Sequence record: MN158212.1
Direction: 5' to 3' (one strand)
Length of the DNA: 44,592 nucleotides
Origin: Escherichia phage BEK1-1
Shown: piece after piece, positions 3,105 through 40,725 of the stretch
Layout: each line of letters starts with the position of its first letter
Position numbering within the stretch: position 1 is the stretch's first letter
Position numbers and translations under genes: made by a program
Notes under the pieces: model-generated
Databases searched by the model: none
Told to the model about the DNA's origin: nothing
The model's input: only the letters and a program-made list of their open reading frames with translations

Positions 3105-3150
3105 AAATAGCACTAATTGCTAAAGACAACTGACTATCTTTAGGTATATT
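3105..3150 (+). promoter_or_regulatory. box promoter (AAATAGCACTAATTGCTAAA, 20 nt, TATATT) upstream of the Rha-like gene
   Basis: Direct reading. Confidence 0.5.
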
Positions 3151-5115: not shown

Positions 5116-5141
5116 AAAGCCCCTTTCGGGGCTTTTGTTTT
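5116..5141. terminator. bidirectional intrinsic terminator between convergent genes
   Basis: GCCCC-TTTC-GGGGC with T-runs on both strands. Confidence 0.7.
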
Positions 5142-8100: not shown

Positions 8101-8511
8101 GTCTCCATTGCTTTCTTGCTTAACCAGTCTAGGCCAATATAGCTTTACACGAATCGCTGATAGCTGAGTATTGTTAACCGCAATGATGTACGGGGTATCG
8201 TTTTTGATTTCCCTGGAGACCTGAACCTCTGAGTTTGCACCATCAAGGCCAGAGATATAGTCCTGATACTGCGTTCCAGGGCGAAACTCAGCCCGAACAC
8301 CTTCGTAGTTGTAGCTACCATCCTGGTTTTGCACCGGAACGTCAGCAAGGTATAAATCCTTCATTGAGAAGTTAGGGTCAACCTCACCATCAGCAACCGC
8401 CAAAAGAACCTTAACCTTGTTAAGTGAAATAAGGTTGTCTTCCTGCTCCACTGGTTGATGCGGCTTCTGACTACCACCCTTAGCACCATAAATCTTAATA
8501 TCTTCAGCCAT
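5140..8511 (-). CDS. tail tip / host-specificity protein (lambda gpJ-like)
   Basis: Track ORF 5140..8550, about 1120 aa from internal ATG (MAEDIKIYGAKGG...) with GAGG RBS; size and position after the I/K/L/M homologues. Confidence 0.8.
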   Translation of the reverse strand: MAEDIKIYGAKGGSQKPHQPVEQEDNLISLNKVKVLLAVADGEVDPNFSMKDLYLADVPVQNQDGSYNYEGVRAEFRPGTQYQDYISGLDGANSEVQVSREIKNDTPYIIAVNNTQLSAIRVKLYWPRLVKQESNGDLNGTTCEYAIDLSVNGGAYQEYTRGVANGKTTTGYDRSIRVNLPAEFDSALVRIRKITADSTSSTLVNGMQITTYQEVIDAKFRYPLTALVYVEFGSDLFPNGIPTISIKKRWKLIQVPTNYDPEARTYSGTWNGLFKMAWSNNPAWVLYDLVTNRRYGLDQRELGVEIDKWGLYEAAQFCDQMVPDGKGGMEPRYLCDMVVQNKVEAYTLIRDICSIFRGLTFYDGEKIGIVVDKPRNPSYIFTNDNVVNGLFSRTFASDKSLYTTANVQFDDVENNYQQDVEPVFELEATRRFGFNPVDLTAIGCTRRSEANRRGRWLLKTNLRSETISFTTGLEGMIPMIGEVIAVNDAAWSSNYQLNLSGRIESVQGLQVFTQFKVDAAPGDRILLNKPDGSPEARTIASISEDGRTINLNTAFSFVAQPDTVFAIDKDNLALQQYVVTGIQKADSDGSDSFQYTITAVEYDPNKYDEIDYGVNIVDRPTSIVEPDRLSPPENLTVSSYSKVVQGLSVETMVIGWDKAPYAKTYNVQWRKENGNWINVPRTASTEVDIEGIYAGIYDVRVRSVSDTENVSSWSDIVTVSLTGKIGRPSAPTVITASTDEVFGIRVKWGFPEGSGDTAYTELQQVPDNGDGTYNPDNASSLTLLPYPAYEYWHTPIQPGKVIWYRARLIDRIGNTSDWSYFARGMSTDDANIINDYIKVDIEGSEGFKYLEQNAIQKNQDIQNQAESILENALANDTDVRRMTKENGKRKAEYVQAVNLIADETQARVEALTALKAQIDDEVVASITEVKTALATETEARTTADTALSARLGENEAALNQKLDAFSNATSTGVQYGISLGLKYNGQTYSSGMSMELVGTGDNVRSQFIFDANRFAISNGIGSGSGQWQLPFVVENGNVIIQSAVIGDGSITNAKIGDFIQSSNYVAGSTGWRIDKSGNAEIRGKLYANSGEFAFNGTNNTVQINGNGITVNLPGGGRVVVGTF

Positions 8512-8557
8512 ATCACAAAGCCTCATGTTTGTTTTGATCATTTGTGCCATTCTACAC

Positions 8558-8584
8558 TAAATAAAAAACCCGCACTAGGCGGGT
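8558..8584 (-). terminator. intrinsic terminator-like hairpin between the I-like and J-like genes
   Basis: Minus strand ACCCGC-CTAGT-GCGGGT followed by TTTTTTATTT. Confidence 0.5.
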
Positions 8585-8591
8585 ATGATAT

Positions 8592-9164
8592 TTAAGCATT
8601 GTCTTCGGCGTAGCTGCCTGCCGAAAATACCGAACCGCCAACCGTTCGATACCCATAAGGAAGACAAACTGGATATCCAGCAGCAACCGTGTTTACGGCT
8701 GAGCCAAATGCGTAAGAGGCCCTGTTACTTGTTTGGTTGCTCTGGGTCTTTAATCCAGTCGCTTGCGGCGAGAGTAATTGAGCAATACCGCCAGCAGCCA
8801 GAGAAACACCAGCACCAACAAGATAAATCTGCCCGGTAAAGATGCCAATCGTGATAAGAGCGGCGCCTAAAATAGTCTGAAACAAGCCGCCAGACTTACG
8901 ACCTAGTGGGATTGGCAAGATGCGTATCTCCTGAACGGCACTAAAATCAGCAATCCTATGCTCGTTCACATTTTTACCATCTACAAATACAGCGTATCTT
9001 GTGTTCTGACCGACATGGCTATTCATGAACTCCTTGAAAGCAGGAATCTGTGAGCAAAGCGCTCGCATAGCCTCTGGCACACTACTTACTGCCATTTGGT
9101 GAATCTTGCCAAACTTACGGCCTAGAGATAGGCCTAACTTAATATCAATCAGTTTCTGGGTCAT
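8592..9164 (-). CDS. tail assembly protein (lambda gpI-like)
   Basis: 190 aa; Gly/Ala-rich hydrophobic C-terminal half; position between K-like and J-like genes. Confidence 0.6.
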   Translation of the reverse strand: MTQKLIDIKLGLSLGRKFGKIHQMAVSSVPEAMRALCSQIPAFKEFMNSHVGQNTRYAVFVDGKNVNEHRIADFSAVQEIRILPIPLGRKSGGLFQTILGAALITIGIFTGQIYLVGAGVSLAAGGIAQLLSPQATGLKTQSNQTSNRASYAFGSAVNTVAAGYPVCLPYGYRTVGGSVFSAGSYAEDNA

Positions 9165-9903
9165 AAATTACATCCTCTGGTAAATCTGTGTGGCGAACGA
9201 TTCGAACTGTGCGCTCTCGCCAGTAATCGGAGTAGATATCAACGGAACTCATTTTACCATAAAGGTGATGAATGAACCTGTTGTTGCCAATGTAGATTCC
9301 TGCGTGGTTTGTCACCTCGCTTTGCACCTGCATCATAATCATCGAGCCAATAGGAATATCTGAAGTTTTTACCAGCTCAAATCCTTCCTTAATCCAGTTG
9401 TCGTCATAGATATTTTCATTGTACCGTTTCTCCCACCACGGGTAATTAACGCGGTAGTCATTCAGTTTGACGCCGCATTTCTTGTGAAATTCCATGACCA
9501 AGCCCCAGCAATCAAAGCTACCAAGACTCCACGGGCGCCCAATCAGTGGCATAGATGATGGCTCAAGAGTCCGCACATCTCCCTCTGGGATGCTTACAAT
9601 AACATAAGGAATCTCGCATTCATTGCAGCTACAGATATCCGCTGGGCTGGGTCTTGTTGTGGCTCCATCACCCGTATGGGAGTGAACTACGTAAACAATT
9701 GACTCATTGTCAGCTAAGCTAAATGCGATACCAGAATACTCATTTGAATCAAGGATAAACTCATTTTCCGGGTCCTTACTGGCGTTTGTGATTTTGTGAT
9801 ACTTCTGCGCCCTACCTTTCTGGGTAACAACCCCACAGCACTCATGCGGGTAAACTTCTTTTGCGTGCTGGAATATCTCAAGTTTAACTTTTGGTGTTAA
9901 CAT
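9145..9903 (-). CDS. tail assembly protein (lambda gpK-like; MPN/JAMM plus NlpC/P60 domains)
   Basis: HECCG...HSHTGDGATTRPSPAD (JAMM-like E...HxH...S..D) and FDCWGL...H (NlpC/P60-like Cys/His). Confidence 0.75.
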   Translation of the reverse strand: MLTPKVKLEIFQHAKEVYPHECCGVVTQKGRAQKYHKITNASKDPENEFILDSNEYSGIAFSLADNESIVYVVHSHTGDGATTRPSPADICSCNECEIPYVIVSIPEGDVRTLEPSSMPLIGRPWSLGSFDCWGLVMEFHKKCGVKLNDYRVNYPWWEKRYNENIYDDNWIKEGFELVKTSDIPIGSMIMMQVQSEVTNHAGIYIGNNRFIHHLYGKMSSVDIYSDYWRERTVRIVRHTDLPEDVIYDPETD

Positions 9904-9916
9904 TAATAAATCCTCT

Positions 9917-10672
9917 TTAACTCTGATTTGCTTTAGCCTGAAGGCTTGCTGCAGCGCAGCCGCCGAAATCTAACTGATTATTCTCACCAAATCTAAGTTT
10001 GCAACTGTTAACAGTTCCTGCACAGAAGTCTAATGAAGGATCCGCCACTGGCTCATCATCCTTATTAAAGTATCTATTTCCAGCATAAGTACACCCATTA
10101 CCGCTACGATACCAACCCCTTGAGGCGAAATAGCAAACAGACTGAACAAGTCTAGCAGGGATGTAAATGCCATCCATATCCATCGGGCTACTTAGTTCAA
10201 ACGAAGCCGTCTTGTAATCAACCTGCTTTGGTCGCTCAATGAAGTAAACGAATCTGCGATAGTCCCCATCAGCAATGCTTCCATCTTCATTGATGTTGTC
10301 TCGCGTAGTAATCCAGATAGTAACCTTAGCCTTAACCAATCCGTTGTATGTGCGAATCAATGCACTGATACGCTGGTCTACGTTTGATACTGTTAGCGTC
10401 ACTTTGTTGGCTTTGCCGTCAGATGTCATATTGATGCCAGAGATACCAAAAGGTCTAGGACCGTACTCTTCACCGCGAAATGTAATTGTCTTTTCTGGTA
10501 GTGGCTCGCCATTCATTTGGGCCAGCATGATTTCCTCTGGCGTGTATGAAATGTTCTCATTGTGGAAGTTGTAAACGAGACTTCCGAAGGAGGTTCCGTC
10601 AACCTGGATTAGTGTCACAATCTCGCCAGGGAAAAGGCTTTGCAACTGATTTTCAAACTTTGGACTTAGCAT
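9917..10672 (-). CDS. minor tail protein (lambda gpL-like)
   Basis: Track ORF 9917..10684 (non-ATG first codon); start moved to ATG (MLSPKF...) after GGAG; C-terminal Cys cluster C..C......C...C as in gpL. Confidence 0.7.
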   Translation of the reverse strand: MLSPKFENQLQSLFPGEIVTLIQVDGTSFGSLVYNFHNENISYTPEEIMLAQMNGEPLPEKTITFRGEEYGPRPFGISGINMTSDGKANKVTLTVSNVDQRISALIRTYNGLVKAKVTIWITTRDNINEDGSIADGDYRRFVYFIERPKQVDYKTASFELSSPMDMDGIYIPARLVQSVCYFASRGWYRSGNGCTYAGNRYFNKDDEPVADPSLDFCAGTVNSCKLRFGENNQLDFGGCAAASLQAKANQS

Positions 10673-10683
10673 ATATTTCTCCA

Positions 10684-10708
10684 ATAAAAAAGCCCCTCAC
10701 AGGGGCTT
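10684..10708 (-). terminator. terminator-like hairpin between the M-like and L-like genes
   Basis: Minus strand AAGCCCC-TGTGA-GGGGCTT followed by TTTTTTATT. Confidence 0.5.
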
Positions 10709-10711
10709 AGT

Positions 10712-11062
10712 TTAACGCATTGAACTAAATACTTCTACGAATTGCATGCTTACAGTTTGAATATCCTTGTTGAGCGGAGTTACGCTAATGCTATCCTGCT
10801 GGATAACAAACATGGATGTGTCACCTTGCGGCGTTGTCCAGAAGAAAGGGGTAATGATGTGGTTGAAGCAGAAATCCATCACATCTCGCCAGTCCTTGTT
10901 GGTGTAGGTCATCTGGTAGCTTCTAGTATTACTACGATACCCCCCCGTTCCCCGTTGGGAATAGCCATTACCAAAGCTAACAATTCGCACGTTGTTCGTA
11001 TTGCTGAATGATGCTGATCCATTTTGTATCTGAGTGCACCAGTTAAATGTATCAATAGCCAT
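10712..11062 (-). CDS. minor tail protein (lambda gpM-like)
   Basis: Start at internal ATG (MAIDTFNW...) after TAAGGA; position between tape measure and L-like gene. Confidence 0.55.
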   Translation of the reverse strand: MAIDTFNWCTQIQNGSASFSNTNNVRIVSFGNGYSQRGTGGYRSNTRSYQMTYTNKDWRDVMDFCFNHIITPFFWTTPQGDTSMFVIQQDSISVTPLNKDIQTVSMQFVEVFSSMR

Positions 11063-11092
11063 AAAAATCCTTAGGGGCCGAAGCCCCACTAA

Positions 11093-14074
11093 TTAGTTAA
11101 ATCCGCGCAGGTAAGCATAAGCACGGCCGCCTTGCTGGAAGGACTGAGCAATCTCTTCCGCTACGATAGCCTTGACGCCGCTCTGCAACGCTTTGGCTTG
11201 CTCTGGGTCGCTACCCACCCCTGAGTTTACGTTAACAGTAATGCCGCTAACATTAACATCAGTTCCACCAGAAACCAAACCTCCATTTGCATAACCAGAA
11301 GGACCACCAACAACACCGCCATTCGCATAACCCTTCATCAGCGCGTATAGGTTCTTAACACCAATTCGGCTTGTCGCTTCTTTTGTGAATACAAACTCGC
11401 CACGGTGTACCGTTCCTGCTGGTTGGTATTTCCCACCATTGCCGGTGTAACCACCATTAGCAAATCCACCACCAACCGCGGATGCGATAGAACCAATAGC
11501 GCCGCCAGTGCCTCCGAAGCTACTCAAGCTAGACTCGATAGCCTTGACAACAAGAAGCTGGGTTGCAATCTTTGCTATCTGCTTCAGGATGCTAACAGTA
11601 AACTCCCTGAAGTTTGTTTCTCCAGTCGTTACAAGGTTGGTAATCTGGTCGGTAATACCTTCGAAGACTGTTGTGGTTAAACTTCCAGCTATTGAAAATG
11701 CATCCGTCGCACTCTCAGCCCAATTGGTAAAGGATTGATTCACGCCAGCAAGCCAGTTTTCACGTAGCGCATCTTCCTGAGCATAAAAGTTACGTCTTGC
11801 CTCCAGTAGTTGCGTGAAATCAACGTCATCAAGTGCTCCTCCAGCATTAACCTGATTGGACTGAAGAGCTTGAATCTCTCTTGCCCTCTGCTGCTCACGA
11901 GAAGACAGGCCAGCCCCCAAATTAATATTGCTTGCCTCATTGTTAATCTGAAGAATCTTCTTGCGGTTATCTTCAGCTAACTTATTAGCTCGCTCCTGCA
12001 AAACAACCTGGTCACCTAGTTCAGCCTTCTGCCTTGCGAGTGCAAGAACTTTATCCTTTTCAATGAGAAGCCTTGCTTGCTCTTTGGTGATTGAGCCATC
12101 AAGTTGCCTCTGCTCAAGAATCCTGAACTTAGCCTCCTCCTGAAGGTACTGCTTGCGCTCATTACTTATTACTGCTCCAATATCCCTGTTTTCCTGAAGT
12201 ACCTTTAGTTGAGCCTGAAGTGCCAGCACGCCAGATTCGTAACAAATTGTAAGGTCTCTTTGCTCTTTAGCCCTACCATTTTCTTCTTTCCTACTCTTCT
12301 TGATCGCATCAAGTTCATCCTGAAGCGCCTTCTTCCTTTTTGCAAACTCCTCATCAGCACCTGACTGCTCATTGGAATTCTGATTTTCCCTGCGTGTAAC
12401 GTAACCAAGTTCTCCTTCTCTGATTCTGGCATCTCTCTCCCTGATAGACTTCTCTAGCTCAAGGTTTTGCTTCTTGGCGGCATCGATAATCTTCTGCTGA
12501 CTCTTGATTACATCATCACCGACACCATCAAGGCCTGGGATATTCTGCAATGCCTGAGTTGCACTAATTACAAACTCACCAATCAGCGCGTCACCTTGGT
12601 TAATGAAGACCTTAATCTGTTCAATTGTCCCGGCTATTACATCAACAAACAGGTTTAGCGCCCCAACCGTTCTGCGACTAATTGCATCCCATACATCAGA
12701 TATGTACTTCCTGAAGTCATTCCAGGCCAATTCAAGAGGAGTAAGCTGGGCTGCAATATCGTTAAGGTTTGCTTCCTGTGATTTGCTAAATATATCAATA
12801 GCAGCAGTTACGGCTTCAACCTCACCCCTAGTCTCTCTCAATCTTTCAATTGTTGTTAACTGCCCCTGTGTAAGGAAGTTAAACCTCTTGTCTAAATCAG
12901 CAAGTCCTTGAATTGGGTCGCTCGCAATCTGGTTATAGTAACCAGTAATTTCCTTTGCATCCTTACCTGTCAACTGCGCCCATCTGGCGGTAGATTTAGT
13001 AATCTTGTCAATCTGCGTCAGCGTAAGGTTCCCTTGCTCAATAAGGCTTGTTGCGATGCTAGTCACAAGTCCTCTGGTTGCACCAGTAGCATCAGAAACA
13101 GAGCTAACCAACTCTCTAACCTGCGAGATTGATGCGATTGTGGAGTTGTTTGAGAACGCAATGGCAGAATTTAATGCTCTGAATTCACTCTCTGCCTGGG
13201 CAGCACCGATACCTAGAGCAACAAGCGCGCCACCCAAAACCCCAACAGCAACATTGAATGGATTTAAGGCTGCAAGCGCGAATCTAAAGGTGTTACCAAT
13301 ACCTCCAAATGCATCCTTAATTTGTCCGCCTTGCTGAATTGCAATAAGCCAAATCGGAATGCCGCCAGCAAGTGATGTCCCAATATCTGTAATCTGCGCT
13401 GGCAATTGAGAGATTGCAGCCTTGTATTGACCTGCGCTTAATCCTGATTTCTGAAAAGCCTTACTCTGAGCAATTAGCTGGGTGTTTGCCTTCTGTGATG
13501 CATCGGCGATTCTGTCAATGATGGGTGCAGCCTGGGAGCTAACTCCAAGCTGGGCCGCTTGTAACTTTAGGTACTCCTCTCTCGTCAATGTCGCCGCCTG
13601 AGCCTGACGCTCAAGTGATGCGATAAATCTATCCGCTTCAGCCTTTGCTTTTGCTTTATCCTTTGCAGCCTGTGCTGCCGATCTCCCCTCTTCAGTTAGC
13701 GCCGCACGTGAACGAGCAAGTTTTGCGTTCTGCGTTTCAAGGGCTTCACCTAAGCGGAAAAACTCCTCATCAGGAACTAATCCAGCCGCGAAAGCCTTAT
13801 CAAGACCTACAGCAGCCTCTTGCAGCTTTCGGAACTTTGCCGCAGTTGGATCAATAGCTGTTTGCAATTTAGCTAAAGATGCTTGCTGTTCAGCCAGTGC
13901 GCGAGCGGTATCTCTAGCCTGGTTTTTAGCTACCTGTTCAGCGTTGACGAACTCACTAATACCGGAAGCAGCCTGCTGGTTTGCCTGTCTGAACTTTTGT
14001 AGGGATTGCGTTCCCCTGTCTACCTGCGAGACGTCTACGGCTAGTGTGATTCCGGCTAATTCATTTGTTGCCAT
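11093..14074 (-). CDS. tail tape measure protein
   Basis: 993 aa; long Ala/Gln/Glu/Lys-rich coiled-coil regions; Gly-rich C-terminus; follows the G/GT chaperone. Confidence 0.85.
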   Translation of the reverse strand: MATNELAGITLAVDVSQVDRGTQSLQKFRQANQQAASGISEFVNAEQVAKNQARDTARALAEQQASLAKLQTAIDPTAAKFRKLQEAAVGLDKAFAAGLVPDEEFFRLGEALETQNAKLARSRAALTEEGRSAAQAAKDKAKAKAEADRFIASLERQAQAATLTREEYLKLQAAQLGVSSQAAPIIDRIADASQKANTQLIAQSKAFQKSGLSAGQYKAAISQLPAQITDIGTSLAGGIPIWLIAIQQGGQIKDAFGGIGNTFRFALAALNPFNVAVGVLGGALVALGIGAAQAESEFRALNSAIAFSNNSTIASISQVRELVSSVSDATGATRGLVTSIATSLIEQGNLTLTQIDKITKSTARWAQLTGKDAKEITGYYNQIASDPIQGLADLDKRFNFLTQGQLTTIERLRETRGEVEAVTAAIDIFSKSQEANLNDIAAQLTPLELAWNDFRKYISDVWDAISRRTVGALNLFVDVIAGTIEQIKVFINQGDALIGEFVISATQALQNIPGLDGVGDDVIKSQQKIIDAAKKQNLELEKSIRERDARIREGELGYVTRRENQNSNEQSGADEEFAKRKKALQDELDAIKKSRKEENGRAKEQRDLTICYESGVLALQAQLKVLQENRDIGAVISNERKQYLQEEAKFRILEQRQLDGSITKEQARLLIEKDKVLALARQKAELGDQVVLQERANKLAEDNRKKILQINNEASNINLGAGLSSREQQRAREIQALQSNQVNAGGALDDVDFTQLLEARRNFYAQEDALRENWLAGVNQSFTNWAESATDAFSIAGSLTTTVFEGITDQITNLVTTGETNFREFTVSILKQIAKIATQLLVVKAIESSLSSFGGTGGAIGSIASAVGGGFANGGYTGNGGKYQPAGTVHRGEFVFTKEATSRIGVKNLYALMKGYANGGVVGGPSGYANGGLVSGGTDVNVSGITVNVNSGVGSDPEQAKALQSGVKAIVAEEIAQSFQQGGRAYAYLRGFN

Positions 14075-14089
14075 CTAAGCCTCCATAAT

Positions 14090-14120
14090 AGAAAACCCGC
14101 CGAAGCGGGTTATTTTTTTC
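14090..14120. terminator. hairpin plus T-run between the chaperone genes and tape measure
   Basis: ACCCGC-CGAA-GCGGGT followed by TTATTTTTTTC on the plus strand; weaker T-run on the minus strand. Confidence 0.45.
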
Positions 14121-14439
14121 TCAGGTTGTCCATCATCTCTAGAGCCTTAGCTTCAAGGATGCGTAAATCGCTGAGCACCAATTCTTCTTCAGAAACATTA
14201 TACACTCTAAAGAGGAAATTTAGCACGTTGTAATCAAGTCCTGTAGCTCCGTTAGCTCCTACTCGCCACTGTGTAGCCATTGAACAATAAATGTCCCACG
14301 CCTTCATCATGTTTTCGTCGAAGTGTAAAACTTCAGGCTCTTCATCTTCGTAATCAGAGCGGCGCATCCCAATAGCTTCCAGTTCGGCATCAGTTGGATC
14401 TGACTGGTACTGTAGATACACCGCTCGTTTTAGTTTTTT
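14110..14439 (-). CDS. -1 frameshift extension giving a G-T-like fusion chaperone
   Basis: The -1 frame is open from the slippery site A_AAA_AAC (about 14433..14439) to the stop at 14110; it matches track ORF 14110..14421. Confidence 0.5.
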   Translation of the reverse strand, partial: KKLKRAVYLQYQSDPTDAELEAIGMRRSDYEDEEPEVLHFDENMMKAWDIYCSMATQWRVGANGATGLDYNVLNFLFRVYNVSEEELVLSDLRILEAKALEMMDNLRKK

Positions 14440-15065: not shown

Positions 15066-15111
15066 ACTATACAGCAAAACTGAATAAGTGCTTTATCAAA
15101 AAGTGCTATGC
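15066..15111 (-). promoter_or_regulatory. box promoter (variant box, 20 nt, TATAGT, leader AACTCATCGAAACGAAA) upstream of the 82-aa gene
   Basis: Direct reading of the reverse complement. Confidence 0.5.
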
Positions 15112-15131
15112 AATAAAAAACCCTCCGAAGA
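15105..15131 (-). terminator. intrinsic terminator after the major tail protein gene
   Basis: Minus strand AAACCCTC-TTCGG-AGGGTTT followed by TTTTTATTGC. Confidence 0.7.
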
Positions 15132-15142
15132 GGGTTTGTGTT

Positions 15143-17766: not shown

Positions 17767-17793
17767 GTAAAAAAAAGCCCTCCGAAGAGGGCC
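17767..17793 (-). terminator. intrinsic terminator after the major capsid gene
   Basis: Minus strand GCCCTC-TTCG-GAGGGC followed by TTTTTTTT. Confidence 0.75.
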
Positions 17794-18813: not shown

Positions 18814-18840
18814 GTAAAAAAACCTCCCGAAGGAGGCTTT
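18814..18840 (-). terminator. intrinsic terminator upstream of the capsid promoter
   Basis: Minus strand CCTCC-TTCG-GGAGG followed by TTTTTTT. Confidence 0.65.
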
Positions 18841-19361: not shown

Positions 19362-20447
19362 TTATTTCTTAATTTTAGCTAAACGAGCTCGTGGGTCTAA
19401 TTTCTTAGGCTCATCGGCGCTGTCAGATTTGTCGGAAGCGGTAGTCGCTTTACGTACTTCAGCCATTTTATCAGATTCTTTGGCAATGTCGAACGCTGCG
19501 TCGATGTACGCGTCAGACTTCTCGGAAACATCAAGGCCGGAGATTTCTTTAACGTAAGCCACTTTAATGCCTTTAGCATCCAGACCGTCAGCCTTAACAC
19601 CAGCTTCAGCAGCAACAGCAATCAGGGCGGCCAGGGCATCAGCGTCAGCTTTCGCTTTAGCAACGGCAGCTTCGATTTCAGCAGGCATTGCATCAACTTT
19701 AGCTTTCAGTGCATCGCGCTCAGCAATTGCAGTGTCAGCCTTTGCGTTCAGTGCTTCGATGTGAGAGGCGACTTCAGGGGCGACCTCAAATTCCTGTGCG
19801 CCGTCGAGTTTAATCTTAATCATTTCCTGTTTATCCTCTTTATTGATATCAACGTCAGTAGTATACGGGTTTTCCTGCTCACCGTCCATATTCAATTTGG
19901 CAATGCCTGCTCTACCTCGATATACCATTGCGATATGGTTCACTTTAATGTCACGCTGAATTGCGTCGAACTCCTGCCAACCCTCTGGCGCATCGAATTG
20001 ATCACCATCAGATTTAAGTACGTACTCACCAGTAATGGGGTCACCCCAGCCAGGGGTTTCGTCAAGAATTGCAGAGTAACCAACGGATAACTCTTTAGCG
20101 TTACCTGCCCTAGCTTCCTGAATGGCTTTGTTATCGTAAACAACAATTGGGGCAACTACCGAGCTACCTAATGGTTCAGCCTTGCCAGTAACGGAACCCA
20201 CCACTACATCTTTAGCATTCTCCGAGTTAACGAAAACATGTTCTAGAGTCATTGGTTTACCCTGGTAACTAGCGAGGGATTCATCCTTGAAGACTTCCTC
20301 GGCTGGGCGAAACTCTCGAACCGTTCGACCGTCTTCCATGTAGTAGACTTGCACGCCTAGGCGTGCGACTACTGGTGTGTCGACTAGAAATCCATTCTCG
20401 TCTATTGTCGCCTTGAACTTTGCGCTGTCATAGCGGATTTTACTCAT
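19362..20447 (-). CDS. prohead scaffolding / maturation protein (tentative)
   Basis: 361 aa; C-terminal third is Ala/Lys/Asp/Glu-rich coiled coil typical of scaffolds; position between Mu-F-like and capsid genes. Confidence 0.45.
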   Translation of the reverse strand: MSKIRYDSAKFKATIDENGFLVDTPVVARLGVQVYYMEDGRTVREFRPAEEVFKDESLASYQGKPMTLEHVFVNSENAKDVVVGSVTGKAEPLGSSVVAPIVVYDNKAIQEARAGNAKELSVGYSAILDETPGWGDPITGEYVLKSDGDQFDAPEGWQEFDAIQRDIKVNHIAMVYRGRAGIAKLNMDGEQENPYTTDVDINKEDKQEMIKIKLDGAQEFEVAPEVASHIEALNAKADTAIAERDALKAKVDAMPAEIEAAVAKAKADADALAALIAVAAEAGVKADGLDAKGIKVAYVKEISGLDVSEKSDAYIDAAFDIAKESDKMAEVRKATTASDKSDSADEPKKLDPRARLAKIKK

Positions 20448-22461: not shown

Positions 22462-24027
22462 CTATTTAATTCCCGCTATGCGCATTAGTCGCGCTTTAGG
22501 ATCATCAGCAATGTTAAGCACCAGGTTTATTGCCATTGTCATGGTATCAATTTGGTCGTCGTGTTTGTGTGAGTCGTCAGCAGTAAAAGACGCAATCTCC
22601 GTAAGCAATCCATTTAGCCACGGCGCAGACTCCGGTAGAACCACGTTACCAGCCTTAATCTGCGGCAGGGCGCTCATCACCCTGGTTAGCTTGTCGCTAT
22701 CCGGAGCGTATGGCTCTATCGGTGTTCGCATAACCCTGCCAGCTGATTGAATCAGGCCGATACCAGAGGCTTTCTTCTCGATAATAATCTTTCGGAGGAT
22801 GCCATCCGACTGACTGGTTGCCCTTGATTTCTTCTCGAAGTCCAGTAATTCAGCCTCTAATTCTGGAGCCTCCCATTTACCCCTACGCTGGTCTATCAGG
22901 TAAATCTTAGCATCCTTATAGCCCCACAACTGAAGTACAGAGAAGTCACTATAACTCTTCGTGGTCATCGCAGTATCGCAAGTTATGAATCTATAATCGT
23001 ACTTGGCTGGAGGCCTGAATGTATCACTAAGACGCTGGAACCAGTCTACGTTAATCAGGTTGCCACCAAGTGCCACTGGTTCTTGTTGATACTGGCTGAG
23101 AAAAGTGTACGGGTCACTATCCCACATCGCAACCAGGTCGTTTACTGACTCCTTTTTTGGGAAGTAACTATAGTACTTTACGCCATCTCTCTCAATGCAC
23201 TCACTGCTTAAAACGTCTTCCGCAAACTGGTCTTTAATCCAGTCAGGTAGCGAGTCGATGTAATCCTCAGTAACTAGCGCTGGTATCTTAATCAAGTCAA
23301 AATCGATGCCCATCCCACCTTCCATCATGAACCATGTTGAGTCATTGACGTGCAAGCGCTGCTGTATAGAAATGATTGGTGTTGCCTTTCCTTTTACAGA
23401 GCTAGCGCGACGTGATCGAATTGTGTTCTTAAGCATTACGTGGTTGTTAGCTCGATAAACCGGAGAAAGCATATCTGCGGGCTTATCGAAATCATCTAAC
23501 AACACCGCACCACTGTAATTTTCAGTTATGTAGCCACCGCGAGCACCAGTAATCTGGCCTCCAGCCGCCTTTGATATTGACTCAAACCTAACCTTTCCGC
23601 TCTCATCAAGAACCTGAAGCTCATCATCCTTGCATGTGCCAAACTTGCAAGGCCAGAGTGATTGAAATTCTTGAGACTTGATAAGGTCACGTACGCGCTT
23701 CGAGTTACGCTTTACCAGTGAGTCTGCAAATGAGATGTTAAGGTTTCTAACCTTCTTCAGCTTAACCATTGAGTAGGCTGGAAAGTGTATCGATGCAATC
23801 TCTGTCTTGCCGCTACCAGGCGCTATATTGATAATAGTGTCCTTACGTTCTCCTGCGATAATCTCGTCAATGATTCTGCACAAGTACTTGTGATGCCAGT
23901 TAGGGATGTATCGCTCGCCTTGCGTGATCTGGAACCAACAACGAAGGAAACCCTCGAAGCTGTGTTCTGATATCGCCTTGACGGCCATCTTTTCCTGAAT
24001 GGTCATTTCTTCCCATACCAAAGACAT
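22462..24027 (-). CDS. terminase large subunit
   Basis: 521 aa; P-loop-like ...IAPGSGKT..., Walker-B-like ...VLLDDFDK..., acidic C-terminal nuclease-like region; position. Confidence 0.8.
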   Translation of the reverse strand: MSLVWEEMTIQEKMAVKAISEHSFEGFLRCWFQITQGERYIPNWHHKYLCRIIDEIIAGERKDTIINIAPGSGKTEIASIHFPAYSMVKLKKVRNLNISFADSLVKRNSKRVRDLIKSQEFQSLWPCKFGTCKDDELQVLDESGKVRFESISKAAGGQITGARGGYITENYSGAVLLDDFDKPADMLSPVYRANNHVMLKNTIRSRRASSVKGKATPIISIQQRLHVNDSTWFMMEGGMGIDFDLIKIPALVTEDYIDSLPDWIKDQFAEDVLSSECIERDGVKYYSYFPKKESVNDLVAMWDSDPYTFLSQYQQEPVALGGNLINVDWFQRLSDTFRPPAKYDYRFITCDTAMTTKSYSDFSVLQLWGYKDAKIYLIDQRRGKWEAPELEAELLDFEKKSRATSQSDGILRKIIIEKKASGIGLIQSAGRVMRTPIEPYAPDSDKLTRVMSALPQIKAGNVVLPESAPWLNGLLTEIASFTADDSHKHDDQIDTMTMAINLVLNIADDPKARLMRIAGIK

Positions 24028-24593: not shown

Positions 24594-24618
24594 GAAAAAA
24601 AGCCCTCAAGCGAGGGCT
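24594..24618 (-). terminator. intrinsic terminator between the early small gene and the terminase genes
   Basis: Minus strand GCCCTC-GCTT-GAGGGC followed by TTTTTTTCG. Confidence 0.7.
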
Positions 24619-24860: not shown

Positions 24861-24938
24861 TGGCGCTCCGCACTGGATTCGAACCAGTAACCTACGACTT
24901 AGAAGGTCGTTGCTACTATCCTATTGAGCTAGCAGAGC
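24861..24938 (-). tRNA. tRNA-Arg (anticodon UCU)
   Basis: Minus strand reads GCTCTGC...TAGCTCAATAGGATAG...ACGACCTTCTAAGTCGT...CTGGTTCGAATCCAG...GCGGAGC-G-CCA; acceptor stem pairs 7/7 (one G-U); anticodon loop CT-TCT-AA; T-loop GGTTCGAATCC. Confidence 0.85.
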
Positions 24939-25161
24939 CTTGAATGAGTCCCGGTTACGGCTCCGGGGCTGCCTGATACAGCCGATTAATCTGCCTATTT
25001 GCGCTAGGTCTTAATGCCGCATGCGCTACTTAATGAGCAGCGGACTTAGTAGTTGCGCTCCGTGCGCCGTTACCACTTGGTGGTCTCGTTTGTCTACGAA
25101 ATTAATATTAGATACTTCCACTCAGAGATGCAAGTCCTTTTTAACAATTGCGGTCTGACTG

Positions 25162-28385: not shown

Positions 28386-28904
28386 GCCGATAATAAGCGA
28401 TTTAGCTTTCCGGTAGAAATCGACAGCCCTCTCCACCTCTTCCTCATTGTACCGCAAGTGGTATGGTAGTCTACTAGCGTGCTCACCTTCGTAAGTTTTG
28501 AAGTTAGGTTGCCAGTACTCATCAATGATAGCTGGGTGGACGTAAATCTTATCCCCAATGAGGAAAACTAGATTCATTTCCTCTAGATCAGGGATTAGTT
28601 CGTCCTTAATGCGAGCTATGATATCAAGGCATCCTACGAACGGCTTAATCTTTCGAGCCTCCTCGTGTACAGACTTGACACCCACCACTCCCCTTCCGTT
28701 TCTTGCCATCTTCCTGATCAGCTTAATCAGAACTCCCAGCGCTTCATCTCTGTAGACTTCCGATGCATCAGGCTGGCCCCATAGGTGCTGAACATGCCGA
28801 TAACCGTTAGCATTGATTGCAACCCGCAGTGGCGGTAGCCCATCCTGGATAGCAATATTCATAATCTGCTCGTCCGTCAGTTTCTCTTCATCGAAATTAA
28901 ACAT
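28380..28904 (-). CDS. hypothetical protein (174 aa), short paralogue of the 527-aa P-loop protein
   Basis: N-terminus MFNFDEEKLTDEQIMNIAIQDGLPPLRVAINANGYR and C-terminus ...NGRGVVGVKSVHEEARKIKPF...LIGDKIYVHP align with the ends of ORF 31388..32971. Confidence 0.5.
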   Translation of the reverse strand: MFNFDEEKLTDEQIMNIAIQDGLPPLRVAINANGYRHVQHLWGQPDASEVYRDEALGVLIKLIRKMARNGRGVVGVKSVHEEARKIKPFVGCLDIIARIKDELIPDLEEMNLVFLIGDKIYVHPAIIDEYWQPNFKTYEGEHASRLPYHLRYNEEEVERAVDFYRKAKSLIIGE

Positions 28905-40202: not shown

Positions 40203-40688
40203 ATGAATGCAGTCGACAAGCGAACCATTAACGGTAATAACGGAACCATCCGCACTGAAGACAAAAAGCAACGGAAACGACCTTCAGGTTACTACGTTTT
40301 GAAAGATGAGGTAAGGGCGGGTTTACGTGCGCGGCTGGAAATTGTTCTTGATTTCTTCGGCACAAAGGCAAATATGGCAAAGCAATTAAAGGTAACACCA
40401 CAGGCTGTAGAGGAATGGTTTAAGCGCGGCATGATTTCTGCGCGCGGGGCTCAACTCTCACACAACTACTACAAGCGAACCGGGGAAGGCTTTCGCGCCA
40501 CATTCTGCCGACCAGATCTGCAATTCGACGGCAACGGCAAGCCTCTTACTCTACGTTGCAAAAAGCGTCACATGCTGCGTGTTGTTACTGAGGCTGAATT
40601 AGCCACCAAGCCAGAGTGTCGATCATGGCGCAAGATTAAGGAAGAGAATCGCAAAAAGCGAGAAGCAGAGAAAAATAGCACGAATTGA
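40203..40688 (+). CDS. putative HTH DNA-binding regulator (161 aa)
   Basis: ...FGTKANMAKQLKVTPQAVEEWFKRGMIS... resembles a Cro/CI-type helix-turn-helix; basic N- and C-termini. Confidence 0.45.
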   Translation: MNAVDKRTINGNNGTIRTEDKKQRKRPSGYYVLKDEVRAGLRARLEIVLDFFGTKANMAKQLKVTPQAVEEWFKRGMISARGAQLSHNYYKRTGEGFRATFCRPDLQFDGNGKPLTLRCKKRHMLRVVTEAELATKPECRSWRKIKEENRKKREAEKNSTN

Positions 40689-40725
40689 TAAACAATGGCG
40701 CTATGCATTGTGTATAGTGCCTTTA
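40673..40725 (+). promoter_or_regulatory. box promoter (AAATAGCACGAATTGATAAA, 20 nt, TATAGT) upstream of the second HNH gene
   Basis: The box overlaps the last codons (NSTN-stop) of the HTH gene. Confidence 0.5.

Follow-up and report, generated by a model that had tools for sequence, protein, structure and literature searches.

Predicted intrinsic terminators at gene junctions in the tail region of the T1-like Escherichia phage BEK1-1

Genes and hairpins of the tail region

The window analysed here is a stretch of 44,592 nucleotides from Escherichia phage BEK1-1 (MN158212.1), a T1-like coliphage (Drexlerviridae, Braunvirinae) that shares about 90% identity with the phages OzMSK, Msk and vB_EcoS-12469II. 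According to Pfam, the genes flanking the hairpins studied are G, T, tape measure, M, L, K, I and J. The G/T region contains Phage_TAC_4 and DUF1799, and in OzMSK the two genes are annotated as one joined G-T coding sequence. T is read only by ribosomes that slip at the -1 frameshift heptamer found at the end of G, and extends up to a stop codon that overlaps the next hairpin. Alignment with T1, AHS24 and phiEB49, together with the SD GAGG, places the start of J at the ATG at 8511.

A preliminary description of this DNA reported four hairpins on the coding (minus) strand, at the GT chaperone/tape measure, tape measure/M, M/L and I/J junctions, and all of them were found at the positions given for them (Table 1). 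They are intergenic, lie just 3' of a stop codon in the same orientation as the genes, and possess stems of 5-8 bp (3-5 of the pairs being G-C) around loops of 3-5 nt, with dG values from -9.2 to -12.0. Intrinsic terminators were taken to consist of a stem rich in GC (about 5-14 bp) that closes a loop of 3-8 nt in the transcribed strand, an anatomy shared by the four hairpins, and of a U-run that begins 0-2 nt past the 3' arm. Such a U-run is present at 14111, 10708 and 8584. However, the claim that a T-run follows all four hairpins fails for tape measure/M, where five T's begin 7 nt past the stem.

Table 1. Features of the BEK1-1 tail region (minus-strand sequences are written as read on that strand; terminators are predicted).
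Feature	Position	Strand	Sequence	Remarks
Bidirectional terminator closing J	5116..5135	.		Syntenic with T1 terminator 28568-28594
-10-like hexamer	8549..8554	-	TAGAAT	14 nt past GC core of I/J hairpin
I/J terminator hairpin	8584-8568 (with U-run, 8558..8584)	-	ACCCGC-CUAGU-GCGGGU, then UUUUUAUUUAGUGUAGAAU	dG -9.2; U-run score 5.11
M/L terminator hairpin	10708-10690 (with U-run, 10684..10708)	-	AAGCCCC-UGUGA-GGGGCUU, then UUUUAUUGGAG	dG -12.0; U-run score 4.76
Tape measure/M tetraloop hairpin	11074..11087	-	GGGGC-UUCG-GCCCC, then UAAGGAUUUUUAUG	dG about -10.8; not a terminator motif
GT/tape measure terminator hairpin	14094..14111	-	AACCCGC-UUCG-GCGGGUU, then UUCUAUUAUGGAGG	dG -11.3; U-run score 3.91
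-1 frameshift heptamer	14433..14439	-	A_AAA_AAC	End of G
Probable tail transcription unit start	15066..15137	-		Terminator + direct repeat + -10-like
-10-like element	15071-15066	-	TATAGT	Part of probable tail unit start
Direct repeat	15109-15092	-	ATAGCACTTTTTGATAAA	Part of probable tail unit start
Terminator 3' of major tail protein gene	15137-15118	-		

The number of terminator motifs in the window is not explained by chance: 16 motifs combining a strong U-run with dG <= -9 were found versus 0.45 +/- 0.63 (maximum 2) expected from 40 dinucleotide shuffles. On the late strand (5.1-24.7 kb) the strong motifs are all intergenic (8/8), intergenic DNA accounting for 4.4% of this span. The terminator set is larger than the preliminary description reported, with further copies of the motif at 24618, 22449, 18840, 17793, 17453, 15137 and 5135. 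The one at 5135 separates J from a convergent plus-strand receptor-binding-protein gene.

Different searches were carried out for other kinds of RNA element. Neither the minimum free energy nor the centroid folds of 66-nt local contexts contained a competing helix or antiterminator, and the hairpin was kept. A classical attenuator was rejected, since in these folds no alternative structure sequesters the 5' arm. RNase III processing sites of the T7 type are irregular stems of about 20 bp, and the stems found here have just 5-8 bp. An Rfam search matched no family except a tRNA. A literature search found no 3'-end, 5'-end or Northern results for any T1-like phage.

Conservation of the hairpins at three junctions

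About 80 Drexlerviridae were compared, and counts are given per distinct junction. The hairpin with its U-run is present at 34/35 GT/tape measure, 52/53 M/L and 50/51 I/J junctions, one relative (L079) having lost the latter hairpin. With the three junctions pooled, 136 of 139 cases show a U-run within 0-2 nt of the stem. U-run scores across the family are 3.0-5.7 at these junctions, and those of the background have a mean of 0.75, a 95th percentile of 2.15 and a 99th percentile of 3.0. The stop codon is found 0-9 nt from the stem (medians of 0-6 nt). Scores are 4.73-5.25 where a -10-like element follows versus 3.48-4.76 where an SD follows directly, a difference between internal and boundary sites that is based on 4 versus 5 sites and would agree with a tuning of terminator strength.

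The three motifs are ordinary terminator motifs, already annotated at the same junctions in T1. The label "rho-independent terminator" is found at the syntenic junctions of T1 (NC_005833), AHS24 and Sazh, the T1 terminators 19508-19527, 22793-22816 and 24972-24994 being the counterparts of the GT/tape measure, M/L and I/J hairpins, respectively.

At GT/tape measure the stem sequence varies among lineages and its pairing is preserved: 96.6% of the cells are paired, changes on both sides occur in 4/7 pairs, and the covariation score was reached by 0/500 shuffles. For M/L, loop-anchored pairing is found in 75/78 cells, a value matched by 0/2000 permutations. In the I/J stem the outer pairs covary; the inner 5 bp are nearly invariant and hence uninformative for covariation. 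This hairpin and the -10-like hexamer past it are located within a run of 44-46 nt that is identical between phages whose flanking sequences share 68-76% identity. Read on the sense strand, the stems contain about 10 G.U pairs and A.C pairs are absent, which points to an RNA structure of the sense strand.

The surroundings of the hairpins differ from junction to junction. At 14111, the T frame ends with a TAA (14112-14110) that lies partly within the base of the stem, and across the family the median distance from this stop to the core is 0 nt. The U-run is interrupted here (UUUUCUAUU) and is directly followed by the SD GGAGG (14084-14080) and the tape measure ATG at 14074; the distance from stem to start codon is 18-28 nt in the family. 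Counted from the final G/C of its stem, the M/L U-run is UUUUUUAUU, directly after which come the SD GGAG and the L ATG at 10672. The corresponding I/J sequence is UUUUUUAUUU. It is more than 50 nt from the SD, and therefore this U-run belongs with the hairpin rather than with translation.

The tape measure/M hairpin

This hairpin begins 5 nt past the stop codon and is placed just 5' of the M SD (AAGGA, 11072-11068), the M ATG being at 11062. It had been described as overlapping the M ribosome-binding site, but in fact it only abuts it. Past the stem the sequence reads UAAGGA, and the U's further downstream form the spacer between SD and ATG. The U-run score is 1.18, below the 95th percentile of the background, and the downstream T-run is not conserved (in AHS24 it reads TTTAAAATG). 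Hairpins of such energy without a U-run are not rare (23 observed versus 10.5 +/- 3.3 per strand).

The hairpin is restricted to the Braunvirinae/Rogunavirinae lineage, and there to gaps of 30-31 nt. Outside it, tape measure and M abut (-2 to +9 nt), as they do in T1 and Sazh, and no terminator is annotated at this junction in T1, AHS24 or Sazh. Within the lineage, an identical block of 24-25 nt is shared by phages with flanks 64-72% identical, and one compensatory pair is seen, in TR3. The sequence of JeanPiccard carries a homing-endonuclease cassette in place of the hairpin, and an equally long insertion is present there in phiEB49. The hairpin is dispensable. Because it is confined to one lineage, is replaced by a cassette in some relatives and has no adjacent U-run, it has been rejected as a terminator. 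Probably, it affects mRNA stability or the context of the ribosome-binding site.

The I/J junction and its -10-like hexamer

The preliminary description also mentioned a -10-like TAGAAT past the I/J hairpin, which is indeed present (8554-8549) and matches the sigma-70 -10 consensus at 5/6 positions. A TAnAAT hexamer is found 13-16 nt past the core (10 nt in one case) in 50/50 distinct I/J junctions, as TATAAT (30), TAGAAT (14) or TACAAT (6). The sequence 17 nt upstream of it is TAGTGC in BEK1-1 (2/6 match to TTGACA); in most genera it is TTGCGC (3/6), exactly 17 nt upstream and with its TTG within the terminator loop. An extended -10 is lacking in the BEK1-1 sequence, which has no TG at -15/-14.

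The conserved hexamer suggests that J probably has its own promoter at TAGAAT. In view of the poor -35 match and the lack of an extended -10, this promoter may be weak or activator-dependent. Since the hexamer is conserved and kept at a fixed spacing, J could be re-initiated and would need no read-through. The earlier argument that full termination would uncouple essential tail genes is therefore weak at I/J. A more doubtful idea is that of a composite terminator-promoter at I/J, and at M/L in other genera, where the TTG of a -35 located exactly 17 nt from a -10 is contained in the terminator loop; a polymerase that has just been released might re-initiate there.

Transcription of the tail region

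The interpretation that best accounts for these data, with a probability of roughly 0.6, is that the hairpins at 14111, 10708 and 8584 act as Rho-independent terminators for the host RNA polymerase, those at GT/tape measure and M/L being leaky terminators inside one tail unit and that at I/J a unit boundary. It is based on the anatomy of the motifs, their non-randomness, synteny, covariation and strand specificity, and the conservation of -10-like elements. Thus, the preliminary proposal of leaky terminators or attenuators would apply to GT/tape measure and M/L but not to tape measure/M, where the U-run fails.

According to this interpretation, the late strand would be split by terminators into nested transcripts. 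A putative promoter right after the major-tail-protein terminator (direct repeat and TATAGT, 15109-15066) would serve orf82, G and G-T up to the leaky terminator 14111. Beyond it, transcription would proceed through tape measure and M to the leaky terminator 10708, and then through L, K and I to the terminator 8584. Immediately past the latter, TAGAAT would re-initiate transcription for J, ending at the bidirectional terminator 5135. At 14111 and 10708 some polymerases would halt and the rest would read through, so that the mRNA dose would be lower downstream and the upstream mRNAs would keep a protective 3' hairpin. From the sequence features we infer that termination takes place, that it is partial and where the units begin and end.

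Leakiness would fit the short stems, the interrupted U-run at 14111 and the nearby stop codons. A ribosome finishing the upstream gene, whose stop is 0-6 nt from the stem, may occlude the 5' arm. For instance, the E. coli terminator tR2, when placed a few bp past a translated gene, is almost fully repressed by the translating ribosome (PMC4824070). In this position series (Li et al. 2016), an engineered reporter system unlike the phage junctions, termination is nearly abolished over the range that corresponds to the stop-to-stem distances of 0-9 nt in the phages; occlusion at the BEK1-1 junctions is suggested by this analogy. Low efficiency also has precedents, since more than 60% of the termination sites mapped in phage LUZ7 have efficiencies below 50% (PMC9163698). 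A stoichiometric rationale is apparent only for the step between the chaperones and tape measure, since M, L and J are required in comparable amounts. A U-rich tract before an SD could alternatively be a translational enhancer.

Hairpins could instead serve RNA stability or processing only, leaving the polymerase unhindered and blocking 3'-to-5' exonucleases once an endonuclease has cut, or insulating ribosome-binding sites and setting segmental mRNA half-lives. This is the likeliest role of the tape measure/M hairpin, with its cUUCGg tetraloop, its lack of a U-run and its position against the SD, and terminator hairpins are known stabilisers of upstream mRNA (PMC11696848). As an account of all the hairpins it is unlikely: a stabiliser needs no U-run, yet the U-run has been kept almost throughout the family, and at I/J it is linked to the hairpin by its distance from the SD. 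A U-rich tract before an SD could alternatively be a translational enhancer.

In the literature, the T1 late region has been interpreted as a set of transcriptons flanked by terminators (PMC11447400, citing Roberts, Martin and Kropinski 2004). Taken strictly, all terminators would be efficient, each downstream block would have its own promoter and read-through would be irrelevant. The -10-like elements after the terminators 24618, 18840, 17793, 15137 and 8584 agree with this, as does TAnAAT after the M/L terminator in 36/52 distinct junctions, all in other genera. However, the whole gaps of BEK1-1 at GT/tape measure (35 nt) and M/L (40 nt) are occupied by hairpin, U-run and SD, just 2/34 GT/tape measure junctions have a TAnAAT past the hairpin, and the sole -10-like sequence near this junction (14204-14197) is upstream of the terminator and corresponds to Tyr-Asn codons. 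Moreover, sigma-70-like matches in the region number 33 versus 33.7 in shuffles. The strict form is thus quite improbable. Because U-run and SD fill the space at GT/tape measure and M/L, no promoter fits there, and tape measure, L, K and I would consequently be made only by read-through.

Lambda Q, Xp10 p7 and P23-45 gp39 are antitermination factors, and a regulated antitermination might operate in BEK1-1, with strong terminators silencing the late genes early and a phage factor later giving resistance. About ten serial terminators would otherwise starve the distal genes, and many small ORFs have no known function, some of them encoding zinc-ribbon proteins. Time-dependent read-through is also known in LUZ7 (PMC9163698). 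However, Pfam (E <= 1e-3) detected no antiterminator, sigma-factor or RNA-polymerase family and no Q- or N-like protein among 45 non-structural ORFs, and the literature searched describes no such factor for T1-like phages. Nor was any such family among the first 25 of the 80 PHROGs families that matched. This absence is one of sequence matches, and a novel factor may exist. The conserved -10-like elements past half of the terminators are a simpler supply route, and we give regulated antitermination little credence.

It is very improbable that the hairpins are DNA-level elements, that is, module boundaries or targets of recombination or homing endonucleases with an incidental RNA motif: although relatives carry insertions at the junctions (homing endonucleases at tape measure/M in JeanPiccard and at I/J in ZL19, a Rha-family gene at L/K in ZL19, small ORFs at M/L in AHS24 and Sf12), the G.U pairs are confined to the sense strand, the U-run is asymmetric, the stems covary instead of keeping their sequence, L/K takes insertions without a hairpin, and insertions are tolerated only in intergenic gaps anyway.

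A refinement of the leaky-terminator interpretation, doubtful at present, is that the programmed -1 frameshift gates the GT/tape measure terminator. Only ribosomes slipping at A_AAA_AAC would reach and occlude the hairpin, the stem of which contains the T-frame stop. In this way, reading on into the tape measure and tail-tip genes would be linked with production of the G-T chaperone, which the tape measure protein needs.

Comparison with known systems

T1 shows the same gene order and the same junctions (ST39/tape measure, ST37(M)/ST36(L) and ST34(I)/ST33(J)), and shares terminator sites after J, the major tail gene and the major capsid gene and at TerL/portal. Its predicted terminators have the same anatomy (GC stem of 6-9 bp, U-run of 4-8), and a -10-like hexamer lies past its I/J hairpin as well. 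The stem sequences differ from those of BEK1-1 at GT/tape measure and M/L. T1 and Sazh have a -10-like element past the M/L terminator in a gap of 60-80 nt, whereas the BEK1-1 lineage, with a gap of 40 nt, has lost it. On the other hand, tape measure/M in this lineage carries an additional hairpin, which lacks a U-run.

Intrinsic terminators with partial read-through between co-transcribed structural genes are found in T7 (T-phi), phiX174 (TJ/TF/TG/TH) and LUZ7. Terminator strengths have been measured in phiX174 (bioRxiv 10.1101/2020.03.05.979765), and the LUZ7 terminators were mapped by ONT-cappable-seq (PMC9163698). These cases are backed by 3'-end or coverage data, whereas the BEK1-1 terminators are predicted from sequence and comparison. 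Moreover, T7 and LUZ7 rely on phage RNA polymerases during part of their programme.

The lambda late operon contains homologous tail genes (G/GT, H, M, L, K, I, J), and in both phages many kb of late genes are transcribed across terminator-like sequences. However, while lambda employs one promoter and a Q-modified polymerase, BEK1-1 carries -10-like elements past half of its terminators.

Late genes and hairpins of BEK1-1

The late genes of BEK1-1 are encoded by the minus strand between about 24.55 and 5.14 kb. A 6-kb region shares 90-92% identity with Escherichia phages OzMSK, Msk and vB_EcoS-12469II (Veterinaerplatzvirus) and 87-88% with BEK2 and Bas02 JeanPiccard. Those of them whose records give a family are all classified in Drexlerviridae, Braunvirinae, and are thus T1-like siphophages. 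Pfam profiles identify G (Phage_TAC_4), T (DUF1799), M (Phage_min_tail) and K (JAB plus NlpC/P60), and also support the identities of the tape measure, L, I, J and tail tube proteins. Shine-Dalgarno (SD) positions and alignment to relatives place the start codons of J, L and M at 8511, 10672 and 11062, respectively. Just upstream of the late operon there is a tRNA gene (24864-24938, minus strand; Rfam, 57 bits), whose OzMSK counterpart is annotated as tRNA-Arg; nothing else in the whole window matched Rfam at the gathering threshold.

The preliminary description had reported stable hairpins followed by T-runs at four junctions of the tail operon. Sequence reading and folding locate all four hairpins where they had been placed (see the table). 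When a hairpin energy (dG) of -9 or lower and a weighted score of at least 3.5 for the U's directly 3' of the stem are jointly required, the window contains 16 terminator motifs, versus 0.45 +/- 0.63 in 40 dinucleotide shuffles. The late-strand motifs are all intergenic (8/8), although intergenic DNA represents 4.4% of that span. Motif sites absent from the preliminary description are 24618 (before TerS), 22449 (TerL/portal), 18840 and 17793 (5' and 3' of the major capsid gene, respectively), 17453 (after orf81), 15137 (after the major tail gene) and 5135 (after J). Every late-strand gap of at least 35 nt has a stable hairpin, save the 39-nt orf82/G gap. Whole-context fold z-scores of 66-nt windows are weak (+0.88 to -2.57); the signal is the local hairpin plus U-run and not an extended structure.

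Coordinates of hairpins, composite elements, repeats and insertions
Feature	Coordinates	Strand	Description
GT/tape measure hairpin	14111-14094	-	AACCCGC-UUCG-GCGGGUU, 3' flank UUCUAUUAU-GGAGG, dG -11.3
Tape measure/M hairpin	11087-11074	-	GGGGC-UUCG-GCCCC, 3' flank UAAGGAUUUUUAUG, dG about -10.8
M/L hairpin	10708-10690	-	AAGCCCC-UGUGA-GGGGCUU, 3' flank UUUUAUUGGAG, dG -12.0
I/J hairpin	8584-8568	-	ACCCGC-CUAGU-GCGGGU, 3' flank UUUUUAUUUAGUGUAGAAU, dG -9.2
Putative composite terminator-promoter, window	8584-8549	-	hairpin + TAnAAT
Same, T1	24972-25010, 22793-22830		hairpin + TAnAAT
Same, many IMG/VR loci			hairpin + TAnAAT
ATAGCACnnnTTGnTAAA copies, examples	15109-15092, 26753-26736, 35337-35320	-	one copy alone in late region
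ATAGCACnnnTTGnTAAA copies, examples	3107-3124, 40675-40692	+	
Insertion, locus L007	14155-14702		
Insertion, locus L008	14641-15191		
Insertions, locus L012	11693-12238, 13647-14144		
Insertion, locus L009	13813-14007		
Insertion, locus L010	12983-13460		

The T1 record annotates a "rho-independent transcriptional termination site" at ST39/tape measure (19508-19527), ST37(M)/ST36(L) (22793-22816) and ST34(I)/ST33(J) (24972-24994), and further ones after J, the major tail gene, the major head gene and ST46, at TerL/portal and before TerS. These match the window sites one to one, and the Sazh and AHS24 records also have terminators at matching sites; 18-21 rho-independent terminators per genome are counted in the AHS24 paper (PMC4070988). 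At tape measure/M no terminator is marked in any of the three records. The other three hairpins are predicted terminators of a conserved T1 type that had already been annotated. The hairpin observation is confirmed and highly non-random, yet it is ordinary and already known, and it carries little weight as a discovery, since annotators of T1-like genomes have marked such features since 2004. What the comparative work adds is that three terminator positions are near-universal across Drexlerviridae, with covarying stems.

The M/L (10712-10670) and TerL/portal (22453-22411) intergenic cassettes, both on the minus strand, are almost alike (TAAACTAAGCCCC-loop-GGGGCTTTT.TATTGGAGAAA.A.ATG), and the TTTTTATTGGAG(G/A)AA part recurs at TerL/portal in T1 and AHS24. 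The 20-mer AAAGCCCCGAAAGGGGCTTT is present in inverted copies at 41-60 and 5116-5135, each at a bidirectional terminator that separates convergent genes; between the copies lies a segment of about 5 kb with recombination and receptor-binding-protein genes.

Conservation of three predicted terminators

The comparison set comprised 12 annotated relatives and 71 more Drexlerviridae loci (IMG/VR, via an M-protein profile), in which junctions were placed through homology of the flanking proteins. The GT/tape measure gap is 34-45 nt nearly everywhere, and 34 of its 35 distinct junctions carry a hairpin (dG -9.1 to -13.5) with a U-run (score 3.76-5.17). Stop codon and stem are contiguous (median distance 0 nt), and only 18-28 nt separate the stem from the start codon. 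Stems vary by lineage (ACCCGC, GCCATCC, ACCTCC, AGCGCC, GCCGCC), but 96.6% of the aligned cells are paired, with two-sided changes in 4/7 pairs and a covariation score of 0.363 versus 0.136 in shuffles (0/500 as high); in slid registers just 32-66% of cells pair.

The M/L motif is found in 52/53 distinct junctions. Its pairs were counted from the loop instead of in the MAFFT alignment, where unequal loops fall out of register; 75/78 cells pair, a value matched by 0/2000 permutations. At I/J the motif occurs in 50/51 distinct junctions and the inner CCCGC/GCGGG stem is almost invariant in Drexlerviridae. In one IMG/VR relative (L079) the U-run and TATAAT are retained but the I/J hairpin has been lost (AACCCGCTCCGCATTCATTTTTTTT), through natural variation or an assembly error. 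On the coding strand every one of the wobble pairs (about 10) is G.U and none is A.C; the structure under selection is therefore that of the sense-strand RNA.

The tape measure/M hairpin

The T-run ascribed to the fourth hairpin does not hold: its U's start 7 nt past the stem and correspond to the spacer between SD and ATG. The U-run score is 1.18 (background mean 0.75, 95th percentile 2.15), and hairpins of comparable energy that lack a U-run are not rare (23 versus 10.5 +/- 3.3 expected per strand). This hairpin is confined to the Braunvirinae/Rogunavirinae lineage, whose tape measure/M gap measures 30-31 nt; in every other genus examined the tape measure and M genes abut or overlap (-2 to +9 nt). 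Within its lineage it belongs to an identical block of 24-25 nt, while the flanks share 64-72% identity; the stem has a single compensatory pair, in TR3, and the downstream T's are not kept among relatives. JeanPiccard has a homing-endonuclease cassette, with a promoter-like module of its own, wholly in place of the hairpin, and phiEB49 has an insertion of the same length at this junction; the hairpin is therefore dispensable. The fourth hairpin is a lineage-specific element adjoining the M ribosome-binding site.

A putative composite terminator-promoter element

The -10-like TAGAAT noted after the I/J hairpin (8554-8549) is not incidental, since TAnAAT is present in 50/50 distinct I/J junctions (TATAAT 30, TAGAAT 14, TACAAT 6). 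Its start lies 13-16 nt past the hairpin's GC core (14 nt in most cases), apart from one junction with 10 nt. TTGCGC lies exactly 17 nt upstream of it in most genera (TAGTGC in the window), and in composite elements the sequence at this distance is TTGCGC or TTGTGC; the TTG of the -35 would therefore be the terminator loop itself. In the window's lineage an identical run of 44-46 nt spans the hairpin, the U-run, the hexamer and the start of the leader, in phages whose flanking genes share only 68-76% identity. TAnAAT also follows the M/L terminator in 36/52 distinct junctions, in other genera and not in the window's lineage, and the GT/tape measure terminator in 2/34 junctions. Further -10-like elements of the window lie 3' of terminators 24618, 18840, 17793 and 15137. 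TAGAAT is thus part of a conserved composite terminator-promoter element, whose promoter activity is predicted from sequence.

Other promoter candidates were discarded. TGTAGAAT was rejected as an extended -10, as its TG is at -14/-13 instead of -15/-14. TGTATAAT (14204-14197, minus strand, in the T ORF) was rejected as an internal tape measure promoter because it is sited upstream of the GT/tape measure terminator, by about 90 nt. Its conservation in Braunvirinae and Rogunavirinae was not counted as evidence because it falls on conserved Tyr-Asn codons and is missing where the protein reads Tyr-Lys-Val; the motif probably arises as a by-product of the coding sequence. A generic sigma-70 scan gave results at chance level (33 vs 33.7) and was therefore not used for promoter calls.

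The direct repeat ATAGCACnnnTTGnTAAA, reported as unexplained in the TLS paper, has 18 copies in the window versus 2.2 expected. In every case a TATAGT/TATAAT hexamer lies 22 nt downstream, and a conserved leader (...CATCGAAACGA...) comes after it. The arrangement resembles a promoter or activator-site module of the phage. A near-copy, ATAGCACAAAAGGTTAAA, is found in the J leader of T1- and Sazh-type phages (T1, about 25010-25040; Sazh I/J leader), where its position overlaps that of the J ribosome-binding site; the window's lineage lacks it.

Proposed transcription units and partial termination

The putative terminators fall into two classes, those next to a conserved -10-like hexamer (boundary) and those directly followed by a ribosome-binding site (internal). 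Five units can be proposed, each starting at a candidate promoter. The first would include TerS, TerL, internal terminator 22449 and the genes from portal to Dec, ending at 18840; the second, the major capsid gene, ending at 17793; and the third, orf81, internal terminator 17453 and the connector genes to the major tail gene, ending at 15137. The fourth would start at a direct repeat plus TATAGT and proceed through orf82, G, GT, internal terminator 14111, tape measure, hairpin 11087, M, internal terminator 10708, L, K and I to 8584, and the fifth would run from TAGAAT through J to 5135. U-run scores are 4.73-5.25 at boundary and 3.48-4.76 at internal terminators, and the run is interrupted at 3/4 of the latter, a contrast of only 4 vs 5 sites that fits designed leakiness.

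The preliminary description favoured leaky terminators or attenuators, RNA-stability elements or processing sites. The reading as leaky terminators can be maintained for 14111 and 10708, after which there is no room for a promoter and where host RNA polymerase would partially terminate and otherwise read through, but not for 11087, which has no adjacent U-run. Short stems are compatible with partial termination. In Escherichia coli, a terminator a few bp past a translated gene is nearly fully repressed by the terminating ribosome (PMC4824070), which, together with stop-to-stem distances of 0-9 nt at the compared junctions, also fits. So do the LUZ7 terminators mapped by long-read RNA-seq, mostly leaky, with >60% below 50% efficiency (PMC9163698). 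A step-down from chaperones to tape measure would make stoichiometric sense; at M/L the purpose is less clear.

It is unlikely that the hairpins are only stabilisers, since the universally adjacent U-run would be left unexplained; at I/J this U-run is >50 nt from any SD. Strict transcriptional units closed by efficient terminators throughout are slightly less probable still, as they fail at 14111 and 10708 for lack of promoter room. Regulated antitermination is given the same low credence: the 45 non-structural ORFs yielded no antiterminator, sigma or RNA-polymerase family (Pfam; PHROGs among the first 25 of 80 families listed), and so there is no candidate factor. A Rha-family member and a Cro-like HTH protein (40203-40688, homologous to T1 gp23) are the regulators recognisable among the matches listed.

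A -1 frameshift heptamer, A_AAA_AAC (14439-14433, minus strand), immediately precedes the G stop codon, and the T-frame stop TAA (14112-14110, minus strand) makes up the base of the 14111 stem. T is translated only past the -1 slip, and only frameshifted ribosomes could occlude the 14111 terminator. Frameshifting might in this way gate partial termination and couple tape measure transcription to G-T chaperone synthesis, a speculative and improbable reading.

A literature search found no transcriptome, Term-seq, TSS map or other experimental transcript mapping of T1-like phages, and the unit map proposed here for the family is concrete and testable. It is also useful for the engineering of BASEL-type T1-like phages, because the junctions double as natural insertion sites.

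Insertion sites

A DNA-level role of the hairpins, in recombination or homing, is very improbable: homing endonucleases and small extra genes of relatives do sit at the same junctions, but G.U pairs confined to the sense strand, the asymmetry of the U-run and the covarying stems favour an RNA element, and L/K is an insertion site too, yet without a hairpin. Insertions of homing endonucleases and small accessory genes are found in relatives at tape measure/M (JeanPiccard, phiEB49), I/J and L/K (ZL19), M/L (AHS24, Sf12) and L/K (Sf12, TR3). The JeanPiccard cassette carries its own repeat-plus-TATAAT module.
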